A stretch of 62,156 nt of DNA, filler included, from Dugesia japonica (Eukaryota): NCBI GenBank assembly GCA_001938525.1. It is 6 parts of 6 records of this genome, joined end to end, with 100 filler letters (N's around TTAATTAATTAA, not from the genome) between each part and the next. Parts side by side here need not be neighbours in the genome. Positions count along the whole stretch, not along the records: positions 10,980 to 26,036 come from MQRL01631562.1; 5 more parts are not named here. One strand, 5' to 3'. Below the pieces are notes generated by a model. It was given only the letters and a program-made list of their open reading frames with translations. It had not been told where the DNA came from and made no database searches. Made by a program: the position numbers and the translations under genes. Below, one piece after another: positions 3,301 to 53,030 of this stretch (its first letter is position 1; every line of letters begins with the position of its first letter).

Positions 3301-4605
3301 ATGCAGATGACTTTGGCTTCAAGGCGTATTGCTCACTCTATACATGAAATAACTGAGTCAGCCACTCAGATAAAAGGTAAATGAATTAAAAATTTTCATG
3401 TCCAAATTAATGCAATCATACAGATACTAGTTTAATTGGTCAGGAGGATTCTAATAATGCAGCTGATATAGCAGAAAATGAGTTGTTAGAAGCAGCTTCA
3501 CAAATCGAAATGGCAGCTAAAAAACTAGCCTTATTAAAACCGCGAAAATCTATAAAGGTAGGAATGTATATTTATAAATACTGCACCACCCACTTACATA
3601 GTGATTAATGTAGTTCTTATTCATTGTAGCTTTGTATGAGTGAGAATCTTGTATTTCATTTGTCTGTTTGTCTGACGTCAAATTAATATGACGACTTAAC
3701 ACAACTGCTGTCATTTGCTTACAAAATACCTTCATTAAATTGATTAAGTACTAGGATTAATATTCAATAATAATTATGTCTGAAATTTTAAAAACTTGTA
3801 GTACGTGAATTATTTAAGTATAAATTTAGTGTAAAATAAATAAAATATTTTATTCTGTGTCTAGAAAGAAACTGGTGAGGAGTATACTTTCGATGGTCAG
3901 ATAATTGTTGCTTGTGGCTCAATCGTTAGTGCAACATCACATTTGGTCAAAATGGCATCTCTTTCTCAACAAGAGTTGGTTGCATTAGGCCGAATGAAGC
4001 CTAGTGAAAATGTTTCCAGTCAACATGAAACACAGTGGACTCATGGTTTAGTTTCAGCAGTAAATATTTATTTCATAACTGAAATAATTTCATTTTAATA
4101 TTAATGAATTTATCGTAGGCAAGATTAGTAGCTGCAGCAACAGAAAATCTGAGCGACAGCGCCAAAGCTGTTGTACAGGGCAAAAGTGGAACAGATCGAT
4201 TAATATCGGCGTCAAAACAAGTTGCTGCTGGGACAGCACATTTATTATTAGCTTGTCAAGTCAAATCTGATCCTGATTCAATAACTAACCAAAGATTACA
4301 GACAGCAGGAGCTGCAGTCAAAAAAGCTACAGAAGCATTAGTTAAAGAGGCCACTGAACACAGAGATGTGCAAGATGGTTCGATTCCTTATACTTACGAT
4401 GGATCTAACAAGAGTATGGTCAGCTCTATGAGAAATGTGAATTTTACTTTCATTTGATATTTATTTTAAATTAATTCTTTAGGTTATTCAAGCTCAAGCA
4501 GACATTGTTGCCAAAGAAAGAGAACTGGAAATGTTACGCAATAAATACCAATCAATTCGGCAAGGTCATATTAGTACACATCCAGAATTTTTTAACAAGG
4601 ATTAA
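350..4605 (+). CDS. TLN: Talin, C-terminal rod and I/LWEQ (THATCH) actin-binding region; 5'-partial, 8 exons
   Basis: Phase-consistent GT-AG exons: 350-621, 2095-2291, 2338-2492, 3016-3376, 3424-3557, 3865-4059, 4119-4436, 4483-4605 (TAA). Peptides LNAVRDVAVAL, RGTRALEASLE, IAENELLEAASQIEMAAKKLALLKPR, QWTHGLVSAARLVAAATENL and LISASKQVAAGTAHLLLACQVKSD match the talin C-terminus as I recall it. Confidence 0.95.
744..1601 (+). mobile_element. Degenerate, internally deleted mariner transposon in talin intron
   Basis: Imperfect TIRs TAGGTTGAAGCTAAAGTTCG (~745) and CGAAAATTTGCTCCAACCTA (~1581-1600). Transposase remnants include KRPNRFGKKVMIFV**HFEEILHFELVPNGKAINA and IRMLADR*QKIV. Confidence 0.85.
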
Positions 4606-7516: not shown

Positions 7517-7968
7517 GTTACATTCCAATGACTTCGTTTTAGACTACTTTGCGAGTGAATTCTCGATCGTCTTTTAGCAACTAGCCTTGCTCATGTAATT
7601 TTAAAATTTTCATTTTACTATTGTTGCCTTTGCGAGCACGTGAAAAGCGAAATAAAGTTGGCCGTGACCGGATATTAGAAGCTGCAAGTCAATTCCTACC
7701 ATGTTATAGATTTGACTTTGGAATTTGTTTATAGTAATGCAGAACACAAGAGTCACCGAGAATTGACGTTGTCGCAAGCGTGCAAAAATAATTCGTCCAG
7801 TGATTATATTTCGAGAAAGATATTCAACAACCAATGGTGTGCCATTGCATAAACCCTTCTTCGGATTCAAATTTCTCAACAACATGACAATAGTCCACTC
7901 TTAAGCAATAATGTATGTGGTAGCATACCGGATTGAATTAAAAATTTGGTATTGAAATTTATAGCATC
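7517..7968 (-). mobile_element. Helitron RepHel PIF1-helicase C-terminal pseudogene fragment
   Basis: SGMLPHTLLLK..VMLLRNLNPKKGLCNGT, RQRQFSVTLVFCITINKFQSQ, VGIDL..SGHGQLY, ending TRKVV*NEVI. Frameshifted and truncated at 7968 by the adjacent repeat. Confidence 0.85.
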
Positions 7969-9839
7969 TGTTGGGATTTTACCCTAGGTCGGTTAATTTT
8001 TTATAACACTAAATCTAGGGGGTCGAATTTTATGTAAACTTTAATCTAGNNNNNNNNNNNNNNNNNNNNCCCGCGATGAATTTGAATCTGATGTCCCCAA
8101 AAAATCCAGATTTTCGGAATGGAGCCGTTGACTCGGAATCCGAGTACAGACTCGTACTCCTTTTGTTTGGGTCCAAACTTCATGATACTCGCTTGAATTA
8201 CAAATTATACTTATTAGTTATCTGTCATTAGCTTATTAGATTTCAGCTTATAACTTGATCATCAGGTTTCTCGTTATCAATTAGTGAGGTTCTAACTAAT
8301 TAAAATCTTTTCGTATTAGTGATTAAATATTTTTAACGGACTTTAATTACTACTTTTAGGTTAAAAATCAATACCCTATAGTTTTACTGTTATAAAGAAT
8401 AGCAGAATTAAACGAGTGAAAAAATTATATTCTAAATTTTATGGTTACTAGCACATAAGTTTAACAATTATAACAAACAACTAACGTGACTGAATCCCGA
8501 TCTGGAGCAAACACAACATTGGAGTAGACTGATTCTTTTATCAAACTTAACGATTCGAAGAGTCCACCCTCACTGTTTCTTCTCAAGTCGGAAATCGTTA
8601 CTTTTGATGAATAACAAAAATTACCGTTTTTAATCAATTCTTCGCTTCAAAAATAAATTAAATTTTATTTGTTACACTGGGTAAATTAGCTTGAAAATTT
8701 GATGAAAATGAATCGGTATATATACCGATTTATCTTCACACCCCAATTCCGTTTATTGGTTATTTGGAGTCTTACGATTTTTCTGACGTTTCTATGGGCT
8801 TGAACGTCTCGTGAGTTCTTTTTATTGGTGGTTATTTTAGGATTTTCAAATTATTGGTCAATCTTCAAACACTTATAACTTTTTTCCTTTTCTTGCCATG
8901 ATTTTCTAACTCTGATTTTTGAATTCATCGATTTTTCCTCTATCAGAAACCTTTAAATTGATAATTTTCACACCACTGGAAGTCGTCGTTTTTGCCATTT
9001 TTCACGAAATAATTATTTTTCTTTTAAAAATAATTTATTTTAAANNNNNNNNNNNNNNNNNNNNNNNNNNNNNNNNNNNNNNNNNNNNNNNNNNNNNNNN
9101 NNNNNNNNNNNNNNNNNNNNNNNNNNNNNNNNNNNNNNNNNNNNNNNNNNNNNNNNNNNNNNNNNNNNNNNNNNNNNNNNNNNNNNNNNNNNNNNNNNNN
9201 NNNNNNNNNNNNNNNNNNNNNNNNNNNNNNNNNNTCCATGTGATTTTCTTGATTTTGACTAATGCAATAATGGTTAATCATTAGTTTTTGTCGTCCTGCC
9301 ACATCTTTATTACTCCTTTTCTTCTTTGGTTTACTTATTTCAGAGTTGTTTCTTGCTGTGATTTCGGTTATTTCGTTGATTTTGATTACCAATCTTGACT
9401 TTTCTTTTCATTATTTCCTTCTTTTTAATTAATGAATCAGTTCCTTGGCTATCGTTTATTATTNNNNNNNNNNNNNNNNNNNNNNNNNNNNNNNNNNNNN
9501 NNNNNNNNNNNNNNNNNNNNNNNNNNNNNNNNNNNNNNNNNNNNNNNNNNNNNNNNNNNNNNNNNNNNNNNNNNNNNNNNNNNNNNNNNNNNNNNNNNNN
9601 NNNNNNNNNNNNNNNNNNNNNNNNNNNNNNNNNNNNNNNNNNNNNNNNNNNNNNNNNNNNNNNNNNNNNNNNNNNNNNNNNNNNNNNNNNNNNNNNNNNN
9701 NNNNNNNNNNNNNNNNNNNNNNNNNNNNNNNNNNNNNNNNNNNNNNNNNNNNNNNNNNNNNTTGTCTAATCGATTCTTTGTCCTGTTTCGTTATGGTTGC
9801 TCTATGTGCTCACTTGCTCCGATCGGTTTCCATGCCACA
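7969..9839 (-). repeat. Long (~1.9 kb including gaps) LTR-like TG..CA repeat with CCAAT cluster and TATA on the minus strand
   Basis: Colinear homology with 56480-57470. Multiple ATTGG boxes at 8755-8857 and TATATATA at 8717-8724. Termini TGTTGGGAT.. and ..TTTCCATGCCACA. Ends are approximate. Confidence 0.55.
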
Positions 9840-10061: not shown

Positions 10062-10879
10062 TTAGACAAAGGTTCCTGTCAATCTACGAAGTGATGAGTA
10101 GCGACGTTTGTTGCTTCCTTCTGAATAGATTATCGAGCCGTCTGATGGTTCATTGAATGATTGATTCTGCCAGATAGGGCTTATTATTGCAATGGGCTTT
10201 GCTGGAGCTGCTTTGTTCCAGATTTCGTTATTATTTAGTTTTAGAGTTTGGATTTGATCGATTTTGCTTATATTTAGAGTTTCATCTGCTCTAGTTTTCC
10301 AGTTCTGTTGATGATCTGTTAGCTGCTTGTAGAACGTTTCTCTTTCCTCAATTATTTTCAATAATTTTTCATTGGTTGCTCTCTGTTCCTCTATGGTCTT
10401 CTCAGGTAATAGTTTAAAGTTTTGACATTGTATTTGGCTTGAACGTAAGACCTCTTTTAATTGGGATATATGGTTTCGGCTGAATGATATTTTTCTTTGT
10501 AAGTGGGCCAATTCTGTATCCCTTAATATTATTGCATCTCTTTTTCTTCCATTGCTTAATCTGCTAAGAACTTAAAATTTTGGCATTGTACTTGACTTAA
10601 TCGTAAAGCTTCTTCTAATCTGGGTATCCGGTCATCATATACATTAAGTCTTTTCTGCCAGTCTTCTGGTACTGACCGATACTTATCTTGTTCCACATGT
10701 GTCATTAATTGGTTTTCATTNAAAATATCAGGCGTTTCTACTGTTTCCTCTTCCTTAGTTACGTGTAACATACACAACTTGTTTGATCTTTCTATAATTA
10801 TAGCTAAGTCTTCACTACTTGCTTTAAATCGGCACCTTCTCATGGTATGTCCGCTTCTACCACAGTTGAAACATCTAGG
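10062..10879 (-). pseudogene. CCHC zinc-knuckle plus coiled-coil ORF (gag-like), frameshifted, 5'-truncated by scaffold end
   Basis: PRCFNCGRSGHTMRRC fits C-X2-C-X4-H-X4-C. Internal duplication (LEEALRLSQVQCQNFKFL / LKEVLRSSQIQCQNFKLL). Stop and frameshift near 10556; AATAAA overlaps the final stop. Confidence 0.6.
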
Positions 10880-10979
10880 NNNNNNNNNNNNNNNNNNNNN
10901 NNNNNNNNNNNNNNNNNNNNNNNTTAATTAATTAANNNNNNNNNNNNNNNNNNNNNNNNNNNNNNNNNNNNNNNNNNNN
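10880..10979. other. Artificial scaffold-joining spacer
   Basis: 44 N + TTAATTAATTAA (stops in all six frames, 10924-10935) + 44 N. Confidence 0.95.
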
Positions 10980-11289
10980 ATAATATTAATAATGTGTTAA
11001 CGAAAGTAGATAGATAGTAGCGGTCAACACCACCTGTTTGTGAAGACCCCCGCCCGTGACCTAATAAAATGTAATCCTAATGGATTTAGTTGTAAATTTA
11101 GAAATTGCATCATTAGGTAATATTACTTAATTTGGTGTTACTTTTTCCCTGTGTATTTAGTTGGGAAATTTTTTACACAAATTATGTCAAGATTNATTTC
11201 ATCGGTGAAATTTTACGTAATAGGATTAACTGGTGTTTAATTTTTCCTGTGTATTTAGTTGGGATTTTATTCAGTGAGATGGAATGAGG

Positions 11290-12150
11290 TCAAGTTTTGA
11301 TTGGTTCAGGTGAATTTGGCCGAATAATTTGCTCGGGTTTGAACAGTTTGGGCAAACTTGGTCGATTTTAGGTAATTTTTTGGTGATTTAGGCGAAAATT
11401 TCCTCGGGAATTGTTATTTTGGTCAATTTTTGGCTGGTTCGAATGATTTCGGTACATTATTTCTTCTGGATTGTTAATTTTTGGGTGATTTAGATAAAAT
11501 TGGTTTAAAATTTCCTAAGGTTTGGTCAACTTGGTAAATTTTTTGGGTGATTTGGTTAAAATTTTCCTCTGGAATAGATAGTTTGGGTAATTTTTGTATG
11601 ATTTTGTCAATTATATTTTCGGGATTAGTCAATTTGAGTAATTTTTTGACGATTGGGTCAATTTTTGGTTCAGGTGAACTTGGCTCATTTTTTGACGAAT
11701 CAGTCAATTATTTCCTTGGGATTGGTCAGTTTAGGTAATTTTTGGGCGTTTTAGTCAATTATATTTTCGTAAATAGTCAAATTGGAGCAATTTTGGGTGA
11801 TTTGGTTCAATATTTCCACCAGATTAGTCATTTTGGGTAAGTTTTTAACAATTTGGTCAATTATTTACTCAGTTTAGGTAATATTGTTTAAATTTTTCAT
11901 CGGTGAGGTCGAATCTGGGCAAACTTGATCAGTTTTGGGTTAACTTGGTCTAATTTTTCCTCGTGATTGGTCAGTTTGGGTAGCATGTGGGTGATTCAGT
12001 CAAATTTTTCATCGATCTGGTTTAATTTGGTTCATTTTTGGGTGATTTGGTCAATTATTTATTTGGTAGGGACAAACTTGGTTAATTATTTGCTCACAAG
12101 GGTAAGTTTTAGGAGAATTTGAATGATAATTTTCTCGGGCTAGCTAGTTT
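11290..12150. repeat. Degenerate short-period subterminal repeat array (TTGGTCAATT / TTTTGGGTGATT motifs)
   Basis: Dozens of diverged copies with roughly 10/20-bp periodicity immediately inside the left TIR. Confidence 0.7.
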
Positions 12151-12301
12151 GGGTTGTATTTTAAGGAAATTCATGATTAAAGTAGAATTTGTTTAAATTT
12201 TAAAAAATTTTTATGGGAATGTTTTACAAGAATCCGGGCAAACCGTTCATGTTGTTTAAATAATATGAAAATTTTAAATTTTTTAAATGAAATCTTTATA
12301 G

Positions 12302-13300
12302 TGTTGGGATGAAACACACCACTAAAAAGAAGGCAAAGTCGCCACAAATTATCATCATTACAAATGGAAAATACACAAAAATGGTTGAAATAAGAAGATA
12401 AATAGAATGGAGTCGGAAACCCATTAAGGAATGAATAAAGTAAAACTGGTTAACCAAAATCAGCATTCATCCACTTTAATCAATTAGAAGAAATTAAAAT
12501 TTATTATATAAAAAAGAAAAGAAAATATCCAATAAAATATTTAATTATAAGAAAATATCAATTAATTAAGAGGAAAAAATAAATGAAAATGAAACCCAAA
12601 TATGTTTTCTTCGAATAACTTGACTCCAAAAAGTCACCAGGACTCGTAAAAAGAAATTTTGAGTCGGGATTGGTATCGGGCAACAAAATTTCTTAGTCCG
12701 AAAACGTTGCGACCATCAAGAGGACCGTCACAAGGGTTAGAAGATTAAACCAATGAGAACCTGGAAAATAAATATATAACATAGAATAAAAGCTCACCTG
12801 ATTATCCAAAAATAACTACCAACGGAATCGCAGAAAAGTCTGCAAAATTCCAGAAAAGTAGCATCAACCCCAATGAAAACGTGTCATTTTAAACTAAAAA
12901 TAACTGGCCAATGCCAAACAAGTCGGGGTGTCTCGGGAGTCCTATAAAAGGACCCCTGTTTTAGCAACAAAAACACACGAAAACTTAACAAAATATTTTC
13001 ATCAACTATAACGAAAAATAACTTTATCAGCTTCAACAGGAATAATTTCATCAGCTACAACTACAAAAGAAATAATTCTTGTAGCTAATTAACGGAACTT
13101 TCATCAATTCGACAAGAAACATTTATTCTCACCGAAGTACCTTAAAAAACAATTTACAATTTAGTAGGTATTGGTTGATATTATTTCAAGGGCAAAAGAA
13201 AATCGCCACAAAAGTATCATTCAGCCTAGCAAAATAGCCACTGGAGAGAGCCTTTATTCGAAGAAATACTACAGTTAATATTGGCAATACCGTTTGACCT
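12302..13300 (+). promoter_or_regulatory. Left arm of inner inverted repeat; Pol II promoter-like
   Basis: Starts TGTTGGGATGAAAC. CCAAT at 12750, 12870 and 12908; TATAAAA at 12943-12949. An ATG-free ~200-nt stretch follows, then candidate donor AG|GTATTG at 13168. Confidence 0.5.
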
Positions 13301-14673
13301 GTTGCAGAAATTCCTAAATTTATTCTCAGAGAAAAGTAAAGTTTTATTTTGTTTGGAAAAAAAGTTTAAATATGAATACCTTAATAAATGTATAGATATT
13401 AAAATTTTTTAACTTATGATTTCATTACCAAATATCTTATATATAACCGAGAGTTTATTTGAATGATAATTTTTGTTATATGAAAATTTTTTAGACCCAA
13501 TAACTATTAAATTACCTAAAAAGAAAAGAATGAAGTCAAGTTCCGTTCCATTGTTTGTGAAAATAAATGGGGCATAATCAAAATATAATAACGCTAAGTC
13601 GTAAATCCACCATTATATTATCAGAATAGTATCAACTAGAAAAATGAACAATAATTTTTTGTTATTATGATGAAAAGAGAAACCACAGTTTTTAACAATT
13701 TATTTATAACAAAAAATGTTACCTCGGGTGAATCTGGGAAGCTCCATAATAAAATGTCTAAGAGTAACATATCCGCTAATATCCACTAGATCATGGAATT
13801 CCTTTTTATGTTTCTCCAAATTGGGACAGAAATAACTATATTATTTTCTAATCGATAGAATATTAATTGAGTTGGAAATAACTGCAGAATTGGCATTAGC
13901 GGTTACATCAAGAGATGGTACGTAGCTTCCGTGCGACGATCATATTTTCCATTTGATAATTATGAGTCATTATAATTCTCCTACACACCTATAACGAGGT
14001 GGTATTTGCACATACAAACTTGCCTAGATTCAATAATGACCAGTTTTCTAAGGAAACGGTCGCTATGCAACGATAACATATGTAAATTTAAAAGACCCAA
14101 ATTAATAAGATTTTTTCTATTTAATCGCGATACTTTATCCTTTTATTATTAATAGCAATTTCGGGAGTATCCATTATTACTACCGCTAGCAACACTATTA
14201 GTGCACATCAGTCTAGTAAACTTTTGACTCTTCTTTTATAACAAATCAGCACTCCCCTTTTATTATCAGGGATTGTAGCCCTATACCTAATATTATTCCC
14301 GGGATTAATGTCCAGAGTTAGGATGGTTATTGTTATCACTATGCTTTCCCGTATTGATAAAAAATAATTTTATTAGTAATATTAAAATAATTTTGCGGTT
14401 GTTTAATTATCATAGCGATATGTGTTTTTAATACTATTATTATTNNNNNNNNNNNNNNNNNNNNNNNNNNNNNNNNNNNNNNNNNNNNNNNNNNCGATAT
14501 GTGTTTTTAATACTATTATTATTGTTCAAATAGGTTTTTATGATAATATCCGCGTAATTATCTCTTATTCTTGGTTCTAGTCCTCATGTTGATACGGTCA
14601 GTCAGGAATAACCGTTTATGTTTGGAAACCACGTTCTGAATTAAATGTTGCGATTAATAATTTCCCTTTTTAG

Positions 14674-14828
14674 TTATGCAGACGAAATTATATCGTATCT
14701 TGCGATGGATAATAAGGCGGCGTCAAATTAGCCGGTACAAGCAACTGTTGGCTCACTTGCTGACAAAAGGGGAAATCGAACATCCGGATGAGACGGACCT
14801 TTGCTGTCTCGCCGAGATGTTTCTTTAA
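14674..14828 (+). CDS. Orphan cassette ORF A (50 aa from ATG 14676; MQTKLYRILRWIIRRRQ...)
   Basis: Polypyrimidine acceptor TTTCCCTTTTTAG ends at 14673. Locally GC-richer open frame. AATAAA at 14929. Confidence 0.35.
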
Positions 14829-14998
14829 AATAAGAAAGTAGACCTGGGCGAGGAATGACCTTCGGCTTCATTGAGATTCGTCTGACACTGAATACAAACC
14901 TTTATTTTTTATGTGTATTAGCTATTCAAATAAAATATTCATTATCTTTTGATGCTATGTTATGTGTGTTACTATTTATTTTCTTTTGTTGTTCTTAG

Positions 14999-15357
14999 AA
15001 ATGGAATCCATATCGGAAAGGGTCATAGATCGACGAAGCCGCCGAATAATTTTCCGACGGTACCACAACCCTCACAACCGTGACGCCGGGATTTTAGTTG
15101 ACAGGTCCAATCTGCCTCTGATAGAATCCATAATATCTCGTATAAGAGATTTTGGGGAACGACAACAATACCAGAACTGGACAGGCTCCGATCGCACTCT
15201 CACGACATCGTTCCAGTATCAGCCTTCCGCTCCAACTCCTGCGCCCGCCGTGCAAGCTTTTATCTCGAATCTTCTCTGGGGGGTCAGGAAACCCAGTGGA
15301 GTGACTGATATCGAAAATACAGTCCTTAATATTGACGATAATGTTGATCCTCATTAA
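14999..15357 (+). CDS. Orphan cassette ORF B (118 aa from ATG 15001; MESISERVIDRRSRR...)
   Basis: Acceptor TTCTTTTGTTGTTCTTAG ends at 14998. GC-richer intact ORF. AATAAA at 15379 with a downstream T/GT-rich tract. Confidence 0.55.
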
Positions 15358-15644
15358 TCTTTTTGGTCTTCTGATGTGAATAAATAAGCGTTTTACTTGC
15401 GTTAATTTTTGTCTTTATGTCGAGTCAAATAAACTTCGGCTGTAATAACAAAATGTTATAGAACTTTATAGACTTCATTAAAAAGTGAAATAATAATACC
15501 TCAAGGTAATGTGGTTAAACCGAGTTAATAATACCTACACCACTCACTGTTAATTTTAGCCATGGTAGACCAGGCTACCTAGTGTTTCCTTTAAATTAAA
15601 AACCTGTTAAGATTATACCAACCTTTACTATGTTTGTATTTCAG

Positions 15645-16003
15645 TGCACTCATCATTGAGTAGATCTCAGGCCCAAAATAAAAAGTTACGGGAAACCAGT
15701 GAATACATAGAACTCACATGGGATCTGTACCGACTCGCTAAAAGGCGGTGGGAGGCAGAAACTGTGGCAGCAGAAGCTAAGGTTAAACGTTATAAGCGTA
15801 AGTGCCTTTCTTTTAAATCCGAGGCAGAAGCTACTCGGAATCAAGAGCGAGTATGGAAACTACAGGTCGAAACGTTTACTGAAATTATCAAATCGTATCA
15901 AGAGCGTGAGAACCAGCTAATGGAAAATATTTTGAAGCTGAGGGCCGCTACCCCGTTAACTCCCCTCCTGATCGATAAAGGCACTCAGACGAACCGCTCC
16001 TGA
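15645..16003 (+). CDS. Orphan cassette ORF C, coiled-coil-like terminal exon
   Basis: Acceptor TGTTTGTATTTCAG ends at 15644. 119-codon charged helical ORF with no early ATG. AATAAA at 16035. Confidence 0.55.
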
Positions 16004-16127
16004 ACTGTGATTTTGCATTATTTCTTTTGTCTTTAATAAATTATTCATTTGCATAAAGTTTTCCTGTTACTTATTTTCTCCGAATTGTAAAATTGGTGTT
16101 CACTACTTAATTATAATTTTCTTTTAG

Positions 16128-16510
16128 TACCTCGAATTGTGCTCCCAACTTGCTTGAAAAGATGCCACCCTGTCCTACGTCGTTTATTACTAGAACGCCA
16201 CTTGAAACGCAAAACAGACCAGGCTCTTCTTAGGCATCTTGCCCAGCGGGACAAGCTCATAAAAAAGCTGGATCTGATAGTCCGAAAGCAAAACGACTTG
16301 GCCATCCAAACAAAGGCCCTAGAAGTAGAAACTAGGCAACTACTGCTAAGAAAAATAGACTTCTTAAAGCAGTATATCGCCGACTTATCCAGCCAGATAG
16401 GTAACTCAACTGAGATTCAATGGAGCGATGACGATGACATCGCGGCCTTCAATTTTCTGGCCACCGACCCAGACCAATGGTTGGACCCTAGTGTAATAAA
16501 TGAGTTGTAA
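16128..16510 (+). CDS. Orphan cassette ORF D, coiled-coil with acidic/aromatic tail, terminal exon
   Basis: Acceptor TTTTCTTTTAG ends at 16127. Intact frame with no Met. Tail WSDDDDIAAFNFLATDPDQWLDP. AATAAA at 16520. Confidence 0.55.
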
Positions 16511-17029
16511 ATGTGTGGCAATAAATGTTTCAAGTATCACTGACTTAAGTTTTGATATAAGATAAGGGAAAATAATGAACCCGAATAGAAAGGTTTATGG
16601 CGTGTACCTCCCATTAAGAGAGAGGTCAACCACCGTATGCTGAAAACCTGACCTAGGGACGTCAGGGTAAATTCTTGAAAGGGTTCCCCTGAGGGCTGTC
16701 TTTTCCCCAGCCACAATCTTTTTCACGCAACTAAGGTTGCGTGCCAAAATGTTAGTCGACTGTTTTCTCTAACTTTGGAAATTATGACATTCATTGGGGA
16801 ACAGTCATCATGAATTATTTTAACCAAGTGGAACTGGTATGATAAATATTTTGTTAATTCTTTTCTATACTATGTAAATAGTATGTTAATAGAGAAATAA
16901 TTGATAAGTTTTGTGTTAATTTGAATAATAATAAAATATAACATGAACAGTGTATTATGATACCATTTATTATACAATAATTAGAAATAAAAACGTGAAA
17001 TTTAGTTTATAAATAATTGCAAGGTTTTC

Positions 17030-17916
17030 TTTTCTCTGCAACGGGTAGTTAAATGTGATGTACTTGATTACGGTATAGAGCTGCTTCTAACGGAGTTCCA
17101 ATTTGTTTTCAAATCGAGCACTTTCTTTCTATAGTTCCCAAACGGATTCAATTAAATGATATTCTTTAAAAAAACAAATCGTGATCTTACAGATAGTGAA
17201 TAGATGTCTGAGTATTGATTTTCACAACATCTTCTTGATAATTTATATCCGTGATTCTACGACTAGTTTAATAAAACTGCTAAAATTTGGTTTTTTTGAG
17301 ATGATTTTCTCTAATTTTCTGGGGGTTTAAGTATCGTTTTTCACGACACCACGACTTGTTCGGCATAGGCCAGTTATTTTTATTTCCAGATTCTGCTACC
17401 TTATTGGTTCTGGTGCCAATTTTTTAACATTTTTTCATGTTTTTAGACATGTCATTGGTGCCTATTTTTAGAATGGCACATGACAATGATTCCTTTATTC
17501 TAATTTTATTTTTGGTCTAGTTTTTTGGACCTTATAGCAGACTTCTAGATGATAGTAAGGTTTTTTGATTATAAATTTTAGATGCTCTGCCCTTTATTCT
17601 TCTGAAATTCTCTTATCCCGGGCTCCTGTGATTTTCTGGAGCAAAGTTATTTGAAATAAACGAATTTTCGGCTTAATTTTAATTATTTTTTGTCTTCAAT
17701 TAATTAATATTTTTTCGCAATTAAATATTTTTTATTAATAATTTTCTTTCTTCTCGATATATTAATTTGTAATTTCTTTTAATTACTTATATGGAAGGAT
17801 GTGGATTTATATTATCTAAGTTCCTGGGTGCCGTCTGTTTCTTATTTTATGATAATTAATGCTTCATGACCCCCTTTGGTCTTATTTCTTTTCCAACTGA
17901 GAGTTTCACACCAACA
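17030..17916 (-). repeat. Right arm of inner inverted repeat (diverged inverted copy of 12302-13300)
   Basis: Reverse complement starts TGTTGGTGTGAAAC and contains AAAAATAACTGGCCTATGCCGAACAAGTCGTGGTGTC, matching 12896-12932. 17615-17760 matches 12515-12650. Confidence 0.7.
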
Positions 17917-18634
17917 GTTGTACTTCGAATAAAGTTTCTTTGAAGACTTAACTAATTAATTTTAAAAAATATTCAAATAAATAAATTAATTGATTTGAAA
18001 GACTAATAATAGGTGTAAGTTACTGATAAACTTTCTGAAAAGTCCATTAAATTCAATAAATTTTTATTTATAACACAAAATTTCAAATCTTCAAAAAACT
18101 ATATTTTTAAAAGCTGAATATTTAAACAAACATTTTAAATATTTTAGAAAATTCTTGAAATTTTTTATGATATTTTCTTCCAACTTTAAATTGCGATTTT
18201 CAATTTTTAATCCTTAAATATTTTAAAAAATTCTTGAAATATTTTATAACGTTTTCTTCAAACTTTAAATTGCAATTTTCAATTTTTAATCCTTAGTAAA
18301 TTTAATTGGTTAGATTTTTAAAGAATGAAAGAATAAAGTTATATTACAAGTTGATGATTAATTTGTTTATAAACACTTTAGCTTTACTTTGAGTTCGTTA
18401 ACTTCTGAGAAACGTTATTTTGCCATGCCTCTTTTTAATGCATTGCTGTAACTCTCCATCGTATTTATATTATCTGTTTATATTTTTAATGGATTTTACT
18501 ATATTAAGGTGAACAAATTATTGGATTATTCAGGTTATTAGTTGTAAAGTATAAATTCAGTGTGAATTATAGAGTTGACTATATTGAATAAGCGATGAAC
18601 AGATTAAACCATTAATTAAATAATCAATAGGTAA

Positions 18635-18750
18635 ATGATGATAGCGAGTATTCTATATGTTATTTCTTGGTGATAACGAGTATTGTATATGTTAATAGCT
18701 GTTGGTAGTAAGTATTGCATATGTTAAGAGCTGTTGATAGCGATTATTAT
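18635..18750. repeat. ~31-32-bp tandem repeat, about 4 copies
   Basis: Unit approximately GATAGCGAGTATTGTATATGTTAATAGCTGTT. Confidence 0.7.
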
Positions 18751-20943
18751 GTATTTAAATTTAATGAAATCAAATATTGTACTGTTTTTATGTTAAGATT
18801 TGATGAAAGTGAAAGTTGTGTTTGTCAATTTACAGTGATGATCAAAATTATTGTGTAATCTTTCATTGATTCAAAAAAAGTTCATGTAAATTTCAGATTA
18901 AATTACATGACTTCAAAAACATTAGATAATACTATATCGCTATTTCTTACTTTCTCATTCTTAGCCTCTCGCAGTTACCCTTCCTCACTTGATCCTTCTG
19001 AATCTTGTTTATTTATCTACCTTAAAACAAAGAAACATACTAAGAAAGAAGTGAAATCTAATTTAAATAAGAAATAATTGAATAAGTATTACGTTTTTGT
19101 TAAAATGTTGTTCTAAATAATAATAATAAATTATAATTTAGTGGGATCACTTTCAACAATTGGTTTATTGAATGTATCTGGTATAATAGTCTTATATTTA
19201 ATTATAAAAACCTATATTTTTCAGATTGACACCCATATTTTTATGATAAATTCCATATTTTCATGATAAATTCCATATTTTTTGCTAAAACCCATATTTT
19301 CAGGATATTACCCATATTTCACATTAAACCTATATTTTAATGTTGAGATCAGTATTTTTAATGATAAGATCTGTATTTTCTATGTTAAACTCTTATTTTC
19401 TAACAATGTATCTGAATATTGGGTATCAAAAGAAAAAAGATTCTCATTAAACGAAAAAGTGATCAGGGTTTCCAATGTGCAAGCAGAGAACCAAGGAGCA
19501 AGCAAAGAAACAGAAGGATAATCAGTCGATTAAAATATACTAAAATTATTATATTATTTGCAATAAGAAGCGTATCATATCAGCTTTTACTCACTATCAT
19601 TCAGTCTTAATGTATACTTTCATCTTTAAATGTTACTCTTTAAAGATTAAGATCCAATAGAAATTAAAGAAAAGTATAGATATTTAAGGTAAATGATGGA
19701 AAATAACTAAAAATATGACTAAATAGAGGTAAATTCTGGAAAATAAGCAGAAATGAGGTAAATAGGTTAAATATAGTTAAATGTTGAAAATGGTTAAAAA
19801 TATGGCAAAATGGTATAAAATAGATGAAAAGGGGCAAAAATAGACAAAAATAGAGTAATTAAGCATATTAAATGATTGTATGTATATAATAAATGTAGTA
19901 AATAATTAATGCATAAATTTACTCTAATAAATATTTTTCTATGTCAAACTCAAATTTTCTAATGGCAAAACTTGTATTTTATATCATAAGTCTTTCATTT
20001 AAAATGATAAGTCCATAGTTTTCCAATGATAAACCATTATTTTCTAATGTTAAAACTCATATTTTCAATAACGAAACCATGTAATAATGTAGAAGTTATA
20101 GTCAAAAGATTGATTGTTTACTAACAATTTAATTGATAATTAATTATTTAAAAGAAAAATAAACCCATAAAAACTAAGGTGCGTGCAAGTAACCAAGGAG
20201 CAAGCAAGGATGAAGGCAAAAAGTGAATGAATTTATTGTAAGAAATGCCTATTTGTCACAAGATAAACCTATTATTTTCATGTTGAAACCATATTGATCC
20301 TCAATTGTAATGAACTTAATCCTTTATCCAATTAATTAAACTTAGTCTCAATATTGATATTCAAAGCTTATTACATAAATGTAAATAAAATATGGAGAAA
20401 TAGAGTAAATGGGGGTAAAAAAGAGAGAAAATATAGGAAAATGGGGCAGAATATTGAGAAAAAATACACAGGAAAATTTTAAACACCAGTTAATTCTATT
20501 ACGCAAAATTTCACCGATGAAATTAATCTTATGACATAATTTGTGTGTAAAACATTTTCACAACTAAATACACAAGGAAAAAGTAACACCAAATTAAGTA
20601 ATATTACCTAATGATGCAATTTATGATGCAATTTTTAAATTCCCAACTAAATCCATTAGGATTAAATTTTGTTACGTCACGGGGGGTCTTTGCACACAGG
20701 TGGTGTTGACCGCTAATATCTATCTACTAACGAACAATAATAATCAAACATATAAACTAGTATCATATTGTTGCCTGAAATTCATATCACGTATGACGAA
20801 AACTTTTTCATAAAAACCAAGACCATGTGCTAAAATTCATTTTATTAAATAATACTATTTTAATAATGCATGTAATATTACAAGGGAATCATCCATCATA
20901 AATAATAAATAAATAATTGACAACCCTTTTTTAAAATATTTAT

Positions 20944-20984
20944 TTGCTATCAATTTCAACGAAATAATCGTCTTCGTCAGGCAA
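20944..20984 (-). ncRNA. Minimal type I hammerhead ribozyme motif in Penelope 3' pseudo-LTR
   Basis: Minus strand reads TTGC-CTGACGA-A-GACG(ATTATTT)CGTT-GAAA-TTGA-TA-GCAA. It has the core, stem II, a near-palindromic stem III, a UA cleavage site and stem I TTGC/GCAA, ~80 nt past the GIY-YIG stop. Confidence 0.65.
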
Positions 20985-21062
20985 TTAAACAATATTAAAA
21001 CAAACTTTTTACAAAGTTTAAATGATTATATAATTTCAATTGAGCAATATCAATAAAAAATT

Positions 21063-21660
21063 TCAATAAAATAATTTTAAGAGCGATGTTGAATCCGTCA
21101 ACTGAACATTAATTTTAGGGTTTAATGCTCTTATGAACAAAGCTTCGCACATCACTCTCTCCCAATAATTATTAAATTCACTGCACAGAATTTTAAAATC
21201 AGAACACCCTATTGATTTTGTACATTTTCTTCGATGCTCAACAATATTACTATTACCACTATTTCGACTTTGCTCATGAACTCTGCTGCAGAGATGACGG
21301 GAAGTCTCTTCGATGTATGTGGCGTTACACCCATTACATTTAAATGGATAGACCAGATCAGAGCACAAACCTTAAGGGGTTACAGATTTATTACTGAACA
21401 TATTTATAACCTTATGAGATTGAGAAACAACCTTTATATTTAAAATATTCTTAAGTGCATTTTCAACCGAAAGTTTGAATTTTTTAAAGCCTTCAGAATA
21501 AGGCAATGAAGTCTCTCTTTAGACTCGAATTCAAAATCTGTATTAGAGATTAGAAGGGTTCAAACACAACTCGCCATCATAGTATGATCCTTTATTAAAA
21601 CTTGTTTTCCCTATATCATTTAATATGAACTCTATTAATAATTATTCGACAGCATTTTAT
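21063..21660 (-). mobile_element. Penelope-like retroelement fragment (GIY-YIG endonuclease)
   Basis: LPYSEG... linker, then SDLVYPFKCNGCNATYIEETSRHLCSRVHEQ...EALFIRALNPKIN. In-frame stop upstream. Confidence 0.9.
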
Positions 21661-22619
21661 TAGGTTTTCTCTCTACTATTTAGTATCATTTCATTATATT
21701 TTTACTCTTTACCATGATGATTTGTCTTTATCATTTAGTTTATATTATATTATATTATAGTTTCTTTTTGTCACTTCACGATGATCTCTCGATATCATAT
21801 AACAATGTTGTATTATAGTTTCTCTTTATTGCTTCAACAATGTTTTATAATGGTGGATGATCTTGCTATTTATTCGATAATTAGGTTATTTAAAGCATCT
21901 CAGTTTAAAATATAACATAGAAAATTACTTTTTCCTTAAAATTGTTTTCGAGAGTTGATGTAACGAGTAAGATGCTTCTTAAGAATTTTAGCTATTAATC
22001 ACTAAGAACTCCAAAACAAGTTTTTTAAGAAATTTTTATGATTAAATAGACTTATTTTCTAGTTTTTTTGTACCTTTCTGTATCGTCAAATTTTGACAGA
22101 TACATGGTAGGCACCCAATTTAGTTTTTCTTAAATTATTGAATTGTGCGATGCCTACTCGCAGATTTGGTATATATCTCACAATTTAGATATGATTTATT
22201 TTTCAGTTGTTTTTTAGAGCAATCTGTGCTCTCCCTATGTTCATACCGTGATATGTTTTATCATTATATTTTCATTACTACATATAGTTTGTCTATTAGT
22301 TGTACACGGTGCTCACCCGCTCACACAGAATCTCGAAATGTGTTTGTTGCTCAGTCAATACATAATGTTAATGTAGTTGCCGTATGATTTTTCTAGAATT
22401 TTTTCTGAAATAACTTGTTTTGGTGTCGATGAAATCTGTGATTGATTGAAAATGATAATTTTTCAAAGTTTCTAGCCAATTATAAATAGGGATAATTACA
22501 TGATTCTTTGTAAGTAATTTAATATGAATATAAAAATATAACTTAAGTTTTTAATCTTTCATTTCATATAACTTTCTTTTCCGAATTCTAACTATTTCTA
22601 ACTCAACATTCCGTTGAGA

Positions 22620-24110
22620 AAATTTGATTGTAACGGCAACTCCGAAAATGTCGTAACTTTCAGGACCCGGTGCTTTGATAAACAAATCTGTACATCCATA
22701 ACATAGATTCTTTCCGTCCCCGTGCGAACACCCTGCGACCATCTTTATAGCTCCCGGAAATTATGGGGGTCGGTCTAATCTCTGCAAGAGATGAGTATTT
22801 TGTACAATCTCTTGTACAAGCTTTTAAAATGCTTGTATGCCTAGATGATATTGTACGAGATCTTGTCAATCATTGCTTGATTCATGCGGCTACTAAGCAC
22901 ATGAAAAGTTTAAATTAGTGTTCGACTGACAAAGCACTGAACTGGCTTTTTCTAGATACCACCAAATTAAATCTCAAAAGCTGGTGGTCCAAGGTTCATG
23001 ATGCAATAACATATCTAAATCGTGAGCTTAACCTGCAAGTAAAATTCAAGAGAAATGAACTGGGAATTTGCTTGCAGGTGATAGATTATATCGATGAAAG
23101 AAATTATTTGATTTCATTTAAAGATCGGAGATCCATGACTAAATTGCTTCATGGTCTATTTCATTTGAAACACACTAGAAAGTGGAATGCCTTTTTAAAA
23201 ACTGGTGCGTTTCCACTGCGATTGGTGCATCTTCATTTTCTAGTAAACCTTAGTATGATGGCTCATTAAAACCTGAGCATTGGCGGTTCATCTATAGGAC
23301 AAGAACAAACACTCTTCCTGTAGATAGCAATTACGGTATGTCCTTTAAATCCTCGAGAAAGTGTTCTTATCATTTAGAAATTCAAGCACACGTTTTTTTG
23401 TTACTGTGCACCCTCATCAGCGTTCCGTACAGGGCGCCACAATGATGTGCTTGAGTTTCTTGCTAGGTTTATTAGAACTACATCAACCTTCAATGCCATA
23501 GTCGATCGCACCTCTGACCTTGTTAATAGGACTGATCACGTTGACTTCGGCTTAAAAATGTTAGGAAGAAGCATATTTTCCTAATGGATGTGAAAATCCC
23601 TTACGACACATCCAGTAATCTAAAATTAGCCAGGGTCTCGAACATAAATAAATACACACCACTGAAAGAGGACATTCAGAAAAACCTTCTAAATTGGAAA
23701 GTTCTCCTTGAGACGATCTCAGTAGGATGTCTGAGATCATGGTGTGTTGAAAATGTGGCAGTGCTTAAACAGGTTTGGTTACGCGCTAATCTGATTAGAA
23801 AATTTTCACTTGTCTTGACCAGGAAATGCATAGCCTGATTGAGTGGGAATTGAAGTTTCCACAACAAACAGGCTGACACTTTTGATTATGAAAAGATCCA
23901 ATGTGAGTAGAGCCAGATGGACTGATGTGGAAGATTTCAATTAGGGTTTCCAAACTTTCCCTCCATTTTCTTGCACTTTCTTCTTATTTCTTCTTTTTTT
24001 GTTTTGTTTGATAGCTTTACGCTGGCCGAACCAAGACATGATTAAACTTGGGGAGGATTTTCTAGCTTGCAAGATGACTTTATTTATCGCGGCGTGTTAA
24101 ATACGAATAG
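22620..24110 (+). mobile_element. 5'-truncated, decayed non-LTR retrotransposon with restriction-like endonuclease (NeSL/Utopia/R5-like)
   Basis: GVGLISARDEYFVQSLVQAFKML, WRFIYRTRTNTLPV, RHNDVL, IFLMDVKIPYD..LKLAR..NKYTPL, ISVGCLRSW. Many stops and frameshifts; 3' end approximate. Confidence 0.8.
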
Positions 24111-24959
24111 TGCATAATATTTATTTAATAGTATAATTTAATAACATTTACTGCAATATTAATAAATTCAGATTTTAGACATTATAATTTAATTGTTGTT
24201 AATACTTTTTATTAATAATAATAATCCTAACTAAAATTATTATAAAATAATATTTCTCGTTTACTATTCTTTCCATTGTACTATAATAATTTTATTTTTG
24301 ATAATAAGGATATGCAATTTAATAAATAATTATTTGTTCAAGTCTACATAATAATAATATTTATTATATTATATTTCTACATGTATATCAGTGATAAAAA
24401 TATAAATAATAATTTACATTATCCATTCAGTTCCGGTCCAGTTTTTATTTTCAGCTATTGTTTTAATTGTCGTTTTTCGAATTTTATCCTTTTCTTTCTT
24501 TTTCTCGGTTATTTTTCATTTTAGTTTTTTAATATTCTGTTATTTTATAATTTATTTCTTGTTTTAATTTGCAGGATTTTATTTCGGTTTTACTCTTTAT
24601 TCGTTTCGATTTATGGGCCTTTTATTATGTTTTGTTCATTTATTTTCTAAGTGGTATTCATTATGTAGTTTAATCTGAAATATTTCTTCGAGCATTTAAT
24701 TTGTAATTAATGTTTCTCTAAGCACTATTTTTATTTAATTTTCTCTTTACATATAATTTGATTCTTTTATTTTTTTTCAATCGTTTCTTTGAGCTAGATT
24801 TTATTATTATCTATAATTTTCTTTGGAGCATTCGTTAATTTTTTCATTTGATTTTGGTATTTATCTCTTGATCATTTATTAGTTTGTTTCTTCTTTAATT
24901 CTTTTATTTAATTCATTATCTTTTTTTTTTGATTAAATATATTGGAATTTCTTCTAGGC

Positions 24960-25145
24960 AGCTCAGTTTTAAGTTATATCTAGGGTGACGTGACCTAGGG
25001 AAAACCCGTGAAGAATTTAATCTAGTATCTCCCTTCTAGATTTTCATAATGGAGCCGGTTACTCGTAATCCCTAGTTTGAGTGCATGCTCGCATTTTTTT
25101 GGTTCAGTTTCACACTTCAATACTACTCGCTCTGGTTCCACAGAC
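24960..25145. repeat. Fragment of the dispersed long TG..CA repeat family
   Basis: TCTAGGGTGACGTGACCTAGGGAAAACCC...GATTTTCATAATGGAGCCGGTTACTCGTAA matches 56536-56632. Confidence 0.6.
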
Positions 25146-26036
25146 AACATCGTGAGCTTACTGATTAGAGTGGCTGTTATTGAATGAAGTGTAAACTAGT
25201 ATCTTGTTACAACTATTATTATCGTTGGTATTACATTTCAAAAGAAACGCGAGATGTATAATCGTTAGTCAATCCTCAAGATTTTTCATAGATTTTTAAT
25301 GATGCGAATCTGATAAATAATCAAGTTTTTAGTTTGAAATTCATTATTATTCTTATTATTATTCTTATTGCCACATTTATTATCTGGGATAAGCACTAAG
25401 GTTCATATTAAGTTATACTCATCATGTTTCTTATCCAGTAACATTAATATTACCAGTATCCTTATCTTATTACCAATTATTGTACGTGGTTGTCGCCATT
25501 AATCATTATCATTACTGCCAATCGTTAAATCTTATTGTCATTAAACCCATTCATTAATTATTCATTTGTTATCATTATGTTTAATAGTTGTCATCATTAT
25601 CGCTATTATTATCATTGTTACCCTTACGATCATTATTGTTACGATTATAATCATTGTCATTATTATTATTAATATTATATTTTATTATAATCACTATATT
25701 ATCATTATTATATTGATAATTATTATTATCAATATTAAAGCAAACAAAGTCAGAAATGATTACGAGTAACTGTTTACTAATAATTATTCAAAAAGGCTTT
25801 ATTTTAATTATTTTATTGTTATTATCGTTGCCCTTGATTGAATTGTATATAAGATTTTTTTAAATCATTATTAATTGATATTACTACAAATATTCATCAT
25901 TACTATGATTTTTAACCAATCATTTTATCTATTATTTAATATAAATAAATATTAATTAAATATTTAATCCAAAATATAATTTTTACTAATCATTAGTATT
26001 AAGTAAAGAAAATTTATTTAATGAAAATTATATTAT

Positions 26037-26136: not shown

Positions 26137-28739
26137 GCGCGGTTTCGGTTTGCGCGTTGTTTTTGTGGAACGTATCTACCGCGCAGTTGGAGGGTTTACT
26201 GTATTTGAAAAAGAAATTCAAATTAAAAAAAACGGAACAGTATTGGTGAAAACAATGCTATGTATTCTTGAAATAATTGAAATAAAGTAAGAGTTATTGT
26301 TTAATTTATTGTTTAATTTATTAATTTTATTCAGAAATTTTGTAATGTAAAAATGAAAATAATAAATATATTTGATAAAAATCGGAGCAAGAGGTTGAAA
26401 TCGGGTGAAGTTATCGTATTTAATCATCTTATTTCAGTAAACAATGCCTTAATCGTCAATACTCATACCACAAATCTATGTGAAGAACACTAGATAACAG
26501 TTTACAAAAAACGAAGTAACATTACATATGAAATATTTATTTGCATGTATTTGTATTTTAAGAAATATATATTTTATTGTCAATCAATCTTGTTCATTTT
26601 TTCTTTTTAATAATACAAAGAAACAAAAGTACTCTATTTAAATAAACTTGTTATTATTTATTAAATATTGTGAACATGTCATGAACATAGATTTAACATG
26701 ACACTAGCATGCATTTACATTACTTCATCATATTTCATGGTTATTATGTAAATAAAACCTATAATACACGGTTACCATGTAAATAATACACTCATAAACC
26801 ACCTGTAATTAAAAATCTATTTACTTATAAGTTTTTTTATATAAATAATGCAAGAAAGAAACAAAATGATTATTCAAATCTATTTATTAAACAACAAAAT
26901 AATAATTACATTAATTCCGACCAAACAAAAAAAATATCACAAAGATGCCAATAAAGTTACAGCAATAAATTAAATCGTCTTTATGATCCTTAACTCTTCC
27001 TTAATTTTGTCCATGAATATTGATCGGACAATAAGTTAAACATACACATGTTTTCTCAATAGACCCTTGTCGATATAAAAAACTTATAAGAAATGATTTT
27101 TATGAGTGTATAGGGTTTATGAGTATATTATTTGTATTATTTACATAGCAACTGTGTAATATATTGCTTATGAGAGTAATATTTATATAGTAACCCTATA
27201 TTTCAGAGTTTATAAGTATATATAACGTGTAATAAGAGGTCGGAAAAATAGTATCGCTAATGAGATTTTTCATTAAAAATTGCATTGCTAATGAGATATT
27301 TTATAGAAAATTGTCACTAGTAATGTTTTTTAAAGAAAATTGTCACTAGTGATATGTTTTATATAGAAAAATTACATGACTAATATGTTATTTTAAAGAA
27401 AATTAACTAGTTAATATATTTTTAAGAAAAAAGTTCTATGTTTTTATCATCTTGTAAAGAAAAATTTTATTATATAAATATCGCAAAGACTCCCCTCTTT
27501 GAAGTTTTTTAATAGATATGTTTTATCATGTAAATATCGCAAAGACTCTCCTCTTTGGTTATTTTTAATTCACTGAAAATCATGTGCCTCAGGATTTTTA
27601 TTAATAAATGCAATAGCTATGCAACTCAGATGCCACAAAAATGCTACACACATACACTGAAAATCATGCGCCTGAGAAATTATAATAAATTTCCTACCAA
27701 AAAGAAATTTTTAAAACTCAACATAGCCGCCATTTCGATTTTTTAAAACTCAACAAAGCCATCATTTTGAATTTTATTGATTTTTTCAACTTAGATGCAA
27801 TTCAGATGAAACACATATACACTAAAAATCACATGCCTATGAATTTTAGACCGCTCATCTCATGAAAAATTTAGAGAATCCCCACATTTCATGCAAAATA
27901 TAGAAATTCCCCCCCTCTCATACAAAATATAAAGTCTGCCTAAAAAAAATTTAATTTCCCATGCAAAAAAAATATTTTTTTGAATTTTCCGACATAAAAA
28001 TTTTTGAATTTCCCGCCAAACAAATTTTTTGAATTTCCCGCCAAAAAATTTTTTAAAATTTCTTTTATAGACCAAATTTTTGTCCAACAACCACCAAATC
28101 TTAAAAACTTCAAAAAAAATATTTCCAAGATCTACAGCTCTCCCTCGAGTCCAAATTCACTCTTTCACACACATAGACACAAAAACTCAACTTGGCCTAC
28201 TTTTTAAATACTCCCCTATCAACCCAAACCCACACAAAATTTAAAAATTATAAATACACACACACTTTCAGGATCAAAAAAACTGATCCGATCAAAAAAA
28301 AATTTGATCCCAAAAATCTTAGAGAAAAAACTAGCCAAAAAATCATAGCACAATCGTAATGTGTTTCCGAGCCCCCTAAATTGTGCTATTACGCAATTGT
28401 TCCCAAGAGCCACTATCCCCCTACTCATATTGGTGATAAAACTTTTACTATTCGCTTTCAAATCTTTAAAAATGATGATTCCGTTGAACAAATAAATAGT
28501 AAATATTATTATACGATTGTAACTAAACATTTTTTAATTTGAAACTAATTTGTATATAAAGGATTTAAAACAACTAAATGATTATATTAAGAAAACCCTT
28601 TCAAAATTATTTAAATCGTTTTCATTAAAGCAAAACTAACTATTTAAATTTCCATTGTCAAATAAAACTAAAAGCGTTAAATGCGATAAAATCTTAACAA
28701 AATCATTAAGAATAAAATAATCGCAATATTCTCGATTAC

Positions 28740-29052
28740 ATGCTGATGATGAACAACTACAGTATGAAAGTAACAAGAAACCTAGAATATTTAAGTGTTA
28801 TAATGAAATATTCATCTATTGTAGTTTTGTTGAACCTATAATTGTAGGAGATGTTAATATTCCTCTATTGAAAGCAGTATGGATAGAAAAACATGAGGAT
28901 GATAGTTGTTGATCATCCAATGTATTTACCTATGTCTTCATCATATTTAAACAATATAGAAATCAATATACGCGATGATAGTCAATTTTGCAGAAGACTC
29001 AAAAACACATTTAACATTATATTTTAGAAAAATAATTAATAATGAACCCTGA
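28740..29052 (+). pseudogene. Polinton/Maverick minor capsid (penton, PX) C-terminal pseudogene
   Basis: IFIYCSFVEPIIVGDVNIPLLKAV, then a frameshift, then HPMYLPMSSSYLNNIEINIRDDS..THLTLYFRK. This resembles the YCDxVExQxVGDxxxPLLR / PxYxP / IEIxIRD / LHFR signature of Polinton/adintovirus pentons. Confidence 0.75.
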
Positions 29053-52882: not shown

Positions 52883-53030
52883 GCAGTAAGAAATCCTAGC
52901 TATTTATCACACATTTATCATGTTTTCATGTATATTATATATATATATATATATATAATTCATTTAATATAAAAGCTTAGATCAAAATTTTGGTTTTATT
53001 AATTGATATTGGATAAAAATTCGATATTTC

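Follow-up and report, generated by a model that had tools for sequence, protein, structure and literature searches.

A putative non-autonomous Polinton-type shell enclosing an unclassified low-copy unit in Dugesia japonica

A stretch of 62,156 nucleotides from Dugesia japonica (assembly GCA_001938525.1), hereafter the window, contains at 10999–20734 a 9.7-kb insertion bounded by long terminal inverted repeats (TIRs) and a 6-bp target-site duplication (TSD). The reading we favour, with moderate confidence, is that it comprises two nested mobile elements, namely a non-autonomous shell of the Maverick/Polinton type and a passenger that entered it later. The shell (11005–12301 plus 17917–20728, ~4.1 kb) would be gene-less and carry cis signals only, i.e. 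TIRs of ~250 bp and tandem arrays, and the passenger (12302–17916) would belong to a rarer family. The evidence lies chiefly in the ends of the insertion and in a step in contig depth at the ends of the inner unit.

Materials and methods

Short scaffolds, linked to one another through N44-TTAATTAATTAA-N44 spacers, make up the window, which is AT-rich, with a guanine-plus-cytosine (GC) content of ~27%. The scaffold bearing the element spans 10980–26036, leaving a left flank of 25 bases before the scaffold edge. Contig sets X1 and X5 and the raw poly(A) RNA runs X13 and X16, four of 24 candidate runs, were mapped on 10980–24000 at 86% likeness. Summed contig depth is not a copy number, as the mapping tool itself warns, so that orders of magnitude alone were read from depths. 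Fixed differences between window and contigs were not taken as absence of the copy at 10999–20734, because contigs drop rare variants. The bins at 16200–17069 (depths of ~5,000 and ~50,000) were excluded from the shell/core ratio because they include a short piece of repeat sequence that is very abundant. Pfam scans of the interior and of the penton-like region used X-read frames. Sources marked 'excerpt' are cited for the portion of their text that was available.

Ends and coding content of the insertion

The outer element is composed of the following features:

10999–11004, no strand: left TSD, AACGAA, by sequence match
11005–11256, + strand: left TIR, beginning AGTAGA; depth 1.5–1.7e5 in the bin 10980–11414
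11113–11166 and 11213–11264: similar copies of a 54-bp repeat internal to the left TIR
11257–12301, no strand: left inner shell arm, with a degenerate 51-bp tandem array (to ~12100); very abundant, depth 3.6–5.0e4
17917–20461, no strand: right inner shell arm, GC 0.24, with tandem units of 79, 32, 20 and 21 bp; most of it very abundant, with local troughs
20462–20728, − strand: right TIR, ending CTACT; BLASTN pair of the left TIR
20729–20734, no strand: right TSD, AACGAA; depth drops to 12 at 20773 (X1)

The two TIRs (252 and 267 bp) are 85.6% identical over 270 columns (BLASTN, E 4e-85), with termini reading AGTAG at 11005 and CTACT at 20728, and the flanking AACGAA copies match perfectly, an identity that two random 6-mers of the window would reach with a chance of 0.001. 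The first-pass annotation had assigned both ends to one insertion on these grounds, and the assignment stands. As the TIRs are 14% apart, the insertion is, on this divergence, an old copy. The 19-base start of the TIR has two exact matches in the window and one with three mismatches, against 0.01 expected. On the minus strand within 45161–45335 lies a 19-mer that differs from the TIR start at three positions; this segment together with 46237–46408 forms a pair of 175-bp direct repeats (89%) ~1.08 kb apart.

Mavericks have been described with (AGT)2 or (AG)3 end motifs, a 6-bp TSD and TIRs of 46–1,447 bp (PMC8097293, excerpt), while 6-bp TSDs are rare among transposable elements (TEs), the other carriers ending in TG..CA or TA..TA (PMC6839031, excerpt). 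The AG..CT termini, the 6-bp TSD (seen in a single copy) and a TIR length within the range correspond to a non-autonomous Polinton, and the earlier appeal to termini and TSD length as Maverick traits agrees with these sources. Polintons are defined by pPolB and integrase (PMC5499653, excerpt); neither a pPolB nor an RVE integrase gene was found, so the element does not qualify as an autonomous Maverick/Polinton.

Coding capacity of the kind expected from a Polinton core was likewise absent, as the annotation had stated. The outer arms hold no stop-free stretch of more than 83 codons in any frame, two short outer-arm open reading frames (ORFs) and one array ORF, the only ones scanned, have no real Pfam match, and none of the 12 frames of 12302–17916 matches any Pfam family. 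Genes for ATPase, protease and major or minor capsid proteins were not found in the element (Pfam, PHROGs and the survey of arm ORFs); Pfam also missed the penton-like relic described below, and its sensitivity to decayed capsid genes is therefore low. There was no Rfam match and no support for hammerhead or Penelope features, and the TIR patterns gave no match in metagenome_contigs or viral_contigs. A published description of the shell family was not found in a search that excluded Repbase and most subscription papers, and novelty is not claimed.

Abundance of shell and interior

Summed depth over nine outer bins was 42,360–183,740 (X1) and 36,002–156,233 (X5), as against 140–797 (X1) and 117–829 (X5) over seven core bins at 13155–16199. 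The ratio of outer to core medians was 157 (X1) and 144 (X5), and the lowest outer bin still exceeded the highest core bin 53- and 43-fold, respectively. Four inner-arm bins were intermediate, with depths of 681–2,990 and up to ~5,400 at 17621. The step coincides with the TGTTGG..CCAACA ends of the unit 12302–17916: point depth outside these ends was ~1e5 at 11467 and 2.3–3.6e4 at 18147, and inside them 397–487 at 12657 and 331–381 at 17910. Near-identical flank contigs at 21614–22791, each with a depth of 6–13, served as a single-copy yardstick. Read as orders of magnitude, these depths suggest shell copies in the thousands and interior copies in the tens.

Since the arms are ~150-fold deeper, the shell appears to be a very abundant gene-less family, most members of which lack the interior. 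The first-pass annotation had regarded the element as a satellite or cargo vehicle mobilised in trans. Mobilisation in trans follows from the missing core genes, provided that the element is of the Polinton kind; the cargo part finds no support in the form given, as the outer depths of 42,000–184,000 against 117–829 in the core indicate that other copies are largely without the interior. A partial relative of the right shell arm at 34472–35006 (identical at 60 of the first 66 bases, 68–75% further on) also lacks the right end of the interior upstream, with a score of 49 against a shuffle mean of 58.

Structure of the interior

12302–17916, no strand: nested unit of 5,615 bp with TGTTGG..CCAACA ends; low-copy repeat, unclassified
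12302–12935, + strand: left inverted arm; best blocks against the right arm at 12457–12642 (76%) and 12892–12932 (90%)
12943: TATA-like site near the end of the left arm
14445–14494, no strand: assembly gap with a perfect 29-bp flanking duplication
~16600–17069, no strand: span with a patch of a very abundant repeat; bin depth 5.0e4 as against 81–237 at 16867; limits approximate
17341–17916, − strand: right inverted arm, ~66% identical to the left arm by alignment

The inner ends are symmetric, with 12 of 14 terminal bases matching, and continue into inverted arms of ~630 bp that are 66% identical overall (12457–12932 against 17345–17808), with a score of 290 compared with 74 for the best of 30 shuffles. 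Because the assembly gap lies inside the element, the evidence that its two halves belong together comes from the TSD and from two pairs of repeats, the outer TIRs and the inner arms. Whether the interior occurs in several copies had been posed as a check: five listed pieces within it are 86–92% identical, which makes it a member of a repeat family, and a one-off insertion of unique sequence is not what was found.

GC content rises to 0.40 at 14495–16530, compared with 0.24–0.32 around it. No reverse transcriptase (RT), tyrosine recombinase (YR), transposase, gag or pol was found in the interior (Pfam, 12 frames). For a DIRS1-like organisation, complementary-strand scores of both 60-bp ends fell within those of shuffles (159 and 73 of 200 shuffles reached them). 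The patch near 16600–17069 has no convincing TSD or TIR, the one 9-bp repeat being about what chance would give among the 61,000 pairs tested. On the minus strand, 13200–14440 holds interrupted frames with hydrophobic stretches, possibly a decayed gene, with no Pfam or PHROG match.

ORFs and expression of the interior

15001–15357, + strand: ORF A, 118 amino acids, ATG start; acceptor-like AG at 14998, AATAAA at 15379
15645–16003, + strand: ORF B, exon-like, without early ATG; acceptor-like AG at 15644, AATAAA at 16035
16128–16510, + strand: ORF C, exon-like, coiled-coil-like, without early ATG; acceptor-like AG at 16127, AATAAA at 16495 and 16520

Three stop-free stretches of 130–139 codons lie within 14953–16510, and none of 500 dinucleotide shuffles of 14495–16600 yielded three stretches of at least 110 codons. 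Among 1.84 billion representatives, ORF A has one homologue, P0001, from a 512-bp contig (40% identical, E 7e-9), and a profile search returned P0001 again and nothing further. As the match begins at the first methionine of both proteins, ORF A is probably a genuine gene whose family also occurs outside this genome. It belongs to no Pfam or PHROG family, and no related locus was found in viral or metagenome contigs. Among the candidates set aside, the phmmer matches P0002 and P0003 are low-complexity repeat proteins, the best ESM Atlas value (0.83, to RHS-repeat clusters) is below the useful range, and the AlphaFold2 model is too weak, with a predicted local distance difference test (pLDDT) of 55 and a predicted template modelling score (pTM) of 0.21; a BFVD search with this model returned no match below E 0.3. 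For ORF B, none of 16 candidates was a homologue, and ORF C no usable match in Pfam, PHROGs or the ESM Atlas, large sequence searches not having been made for it; weak Pfam/PHROG matches of ORFs B and C (E 0.008–0.08) were below the cut-off.

A pyrimidine-rich AG precedes each of the three ORFs, in splice phase 1, and each terminates a short distance ahead of an AATAAA. On the plus strand of the interior the longest frame is in phase 1 for 11 of 13 acceptors, as against 59 of 129 elsewhere in the window (P 0.005), and the independent long acceptor frames are in phase 1 in all four cases (P 0.04). Given that some of the 13 acceptors share one frame and that a donor scan found no leader exon, an alternative-terminal-exon unit is offered as no more than a lead. 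The acceptor-like segments 14892–14921 and 15615–15644 are 73% alike, with GTAGACC ~80 bases upstream of each, and resemble a duplicated intron unit.

RNA depth was 0 over 13155–15764 in X13 and X16, bar 0.04 in one bin, and did not exceed 0.15 over 15765–16634 (a quarter of each run, with no host-gene control in the stretch). Polintons and LTR (long terminal repeat) elements are PIWI-repressed in planarians (PMC8532177, excerpt), and this silence therefore says little.

The penton-like relic

On a different scaffold, a broken penton-like gene occupies two frames of the plus strand at 28721–29024, with a short ATG-led frame at ~29044. It shares the pattern Y..V....VGD...PLL..V, by eye, with the published Polinton PX row (PMC4028283, supplement), and found no match in Pfam, PHROGs, PDB sequences or IMG/VR. 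The six frames of 26138–30300 gave no Pfam match, and no further Polinton gene was found beside it. The earlier claim of a penton relic left by autonomous relatives is thus retained for the pattern and finds no backing in these databases: 28721–29024 is a probable penton relic, judged by residues, and a helper Polinton lineage in this genome is plausible.

The right-arm relative at 34472–35006, seen as a diverged partial copy at a scaffold end, is on the same scaffold as the relic. A 37-bp AT-rich match (89%), which may be due to chance, links 19529–19565 in the right shell arm with 29393–29426, just past the relic.

Proposed origin and alternative explanations

Under the favoured nested reading, an autonomous Polinton would supply, by analogy with Polintons in general, the protein-primed polymerase that copies the shell from its ends and the retroviral-like integrase that inserts it with a 6-base staggered cut, giving the AACGAA duplication. 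Being short, the shell could outreplicate the autonomous Polinton in the manner of a MITE, a miniature transposable element with inverted repeats. The interior, a member of a rarer family that ends in TG..CA and has three small orphan coding units between diverged inverted arms, would have entered one shell copy later. We infer Polinton enzymes as the mover, this order of events, and an interior that travels without the shell.

Several observations weigh against this history. A fresh DDE insertion is expected to show a TSD, and the inner unit is without one: no TSD was found at the TG..CA termini, where the best candidate agrees in 2 of 4 bases, and a 3-bp AGT duplication appears only if both inner ends are shifted one base inward. 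At the outer ends, the terminus AGTAGA agrees at five of six positions with (AGT)2 and equally at five of six with (AG)3, and these TIRs were not found on any autonomous element. Depth along the right shell arm is uneven (10–45 at 19444–19461, ~330–420 at 19687), for which reason a mosaic make-up of the shell is conceivable, and AT-rich arrays can attract unrelated repeats at 86% likeness. Neither the joint 12301–17917 nor an empty site was present among the 15 of 1,285 joints listed. Nor does the sequence before 34472–35006 resemble the left arm's end, with a score of 42 against a shuffle mean of 47. Joints at the element ends were likewise not among the 15 listed, and none of the 16 pieces listed spans a junction; the contig mapping of the left inner arm shows many skip joints among the 51-bp array units.

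The interior might instead have entered the shell once, the 9.7-kb composite then being amplified to tens of copies by Polinton enzymes. Such a cargo subfamily would explain why the whole interior has relatives (core depth 117–829 against 6–13 for single contigs; pieces 86–92% identical), why these are about as diverged as the outer TIRs (14%) and why the inner ends lack a TSD, and Polintons that kept their mobility after taking in a TE have been reported (bioRxiv 2025.02.07.637071, excerpt). We nevertheless hold it unlikely, as the interior has symmetric termini of its own, depth over the inner arms is several times that of the core, as a family with end-bearing derivatives of its own would show, and shell sequence is at least 40- to 150-fold more plentiful than interior sequence.

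A second alternative is compatible with the nested history and competes with it on the identity of the interior alone, which would be a solo LTR, or an LTR-region remnant, of a giant Burro-like Gypsy element with accessory ORFs, left by LTR recombination. The TG..CA ends, the size of 5.6 kb and the patch near 16600–17069, which a very abundant repeat has in common with the interior, speak for this origin. It is doubtful all the same, because no adjoining gag or pol remnant was seen, no 4–6 bp TSD was seen at the interior (one may have decayed), and inverted arms of 630 bp are, to our knowledge, not usual for LTRs.

A further alternative concerns the shell itself. An origin from another integrase-type or unknown DNA transposon, or from a mosaic of several abundant repeats enclosed by one TIR pair, would fit the missing core genes and autonomous partner, the uneven depth and the many loose contig ends along the right arm, and GingerRoot, Ginger2 and some LTR elements also produce 6-bp TSDs (PMC6839031, excerpt). 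These, however, end in TG..CA or TA..TA and not in AG..CT (same excerpt; PMC2836005, excerpt), the TIR length and end motif fit Mavericks (PMC8097293, excerpt), and a penton-like relic lies in the same window, all of which makes such an origin quite unlikely.

It is also decidedly improbable, taken as a whole, that the interior is an undescribed non-autonomous unit within a gene-less Polinton shell and that the composite was amplified, and possibly packaged, as a satellite of a helper Polinton. This joint reading would combine the inverted arms, the TATA-like site in the left arm and an alternative 3' exon array; ORFs A–C would be joined by a 50-codon fourth at 14674, all in phase 1, and the three exons, each with its own poly(A) signal, would resemble the transcription unit of a small virus. 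An assembly chimera, in which halves from different loci were joined at 14445–14494, is very improbable, for although the gap, which falls in a repeat, shows a perfect 29-bp overlap within ATT-rich sequence, the assembly is fragmented and no mapped contig spans the element, the matching TSD (chance 0.001), the outer TIRs and the inner arms are all paired across the gap.

Other features of the window

On the element's own scaffold, 21066–21371 (− strand) is very abundant, with RNA reads on both strands, and is presumably a fragment of a Penelope-type GIY-YIG endonuclease. A decayed low-copy element at 22700–23840 (+ strand), with relatives ~86–89% identical, we take to be the terminal part of a non-LTR retrotransposon whose endonuclease is restriction-like.

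The remaining scaffolds bear spliced exons, which mark the DNA as animal, together with relics of several element types. The C-terminal exons of talin, with short introns, lie at 3016–4600 (+ strand; relatives in Pfam PF01608), a talin exon being 93% identical to one protein and at most 60% to the other 14, and an exon at 53925–54278 (− strand) presumably corresponds to the GPI-anchor enzyme PIG-A. A Helitron-like Pif1 helicase relic occurs at 7613–7900 (− strand; PF21530, E 3e-9) and a mariner helix-turn-helix relic at 52664–52969 (+ strand; PF17906, E 4e-14). A gag-like frame at 10065–10880 (− strand), with a CCHC zinc knuckle followed by a coiled coil, is cut by the scaffold end; 30390–32300 (+ strand) we assume to be a Gypsy-like gag/pol relic, and 30547–31068 has no Pfam match. 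Two blocks, 7988–9043 and 56478–57441, are repeated across scaffolds at 74–80%.

Discussion

Non-autonomous Polintons were reportedly described by Kapitonov and Jurka in 2006. The shell resembles Mavericks/Polintons in that it ends in AG..CT, has TIRs a few hundred bases long and is flanked by a 6-bp TSD, but at ~4.1 kb and without core genes it differs from the intact vertebrate elements, which measure 12.7–24.6 kb (PMC8097293, excerpt). Polinton families can be small, with fewer than 10 copies in Anolis (PMC3014272, excerpt), whereas the shell is apparently far more abundant.

Polintons without polB that contain inserted TEs and are still mobile have already been reported (bioRxiv 2025.02.07.637071, excerpt). 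Like the present element, these insect polintons with LINE or Gypsy cargo combine Polinton ends, a missing polymerase and an inner mobile element; as far as that excerpt goes, they retain several core genes and carry a classifiable TE with which they are co-amplified, whereas here the shell is coreless and the passenger unclassified. Nematode Mavericks with wasp/krma cargo also retain core genes (bioRxiv 2022.07.12.499685, excerpt). They share with the present element a GC-richer inner region with apparently spliced genes between TIRs, but by the same excerpt their cargo measures 2–5 kb, has the left TIR on one side and the integrase on the other, and belongs to large families moved between species, while ORFs A–C are near-orphans with flanking termini of their own.

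None of the systems compared fits the interior fully. Its TGTTG at both ends corresponds to the 5'-TGTNR ends of Ginger1 and Ginger2, and it has neither their TIRs of 40–270 bp, nor their TSD of 4–5 bp, nor their integrase-like transposase (PMC2836005, excerpt). Giant planarian Gypsy elements reach 25 kb inside and exceed 30 kb with their LTRs, they bear accessory ORFs, and Ogre LTRs reach 6.5 kb (PMC6431247, excerpt); the interior is like the LTRs of Burro/GYPSM1 in its TG..CA ends and multi-kilobase size and unlike them in its inverted arms and missing TSD. Inverted ends without a TSD and a length of 4–6 kb recall DIRS1-like elements, but of their hallmarks, RT/RNase H, YR and an internal complementary region, none was found in the interior (PMC3266345, excerpt).

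The element flags an unclassified low-copy mobile unit with orphan genes, and an interior found between Maverick ends is not to be termed cargo without copy counts. Should the composite turn out to have multiplied as one unit, it would amount to a Maverick that ferries orphan genes while free of core genes, beyond the known polB-less cases. If instead the nested reading is true, the shell would point to an animal Polinton satellite family that is MITE-like and very abundant, and that would be well suited to defining which end signals Polinton enzymes need at the least.

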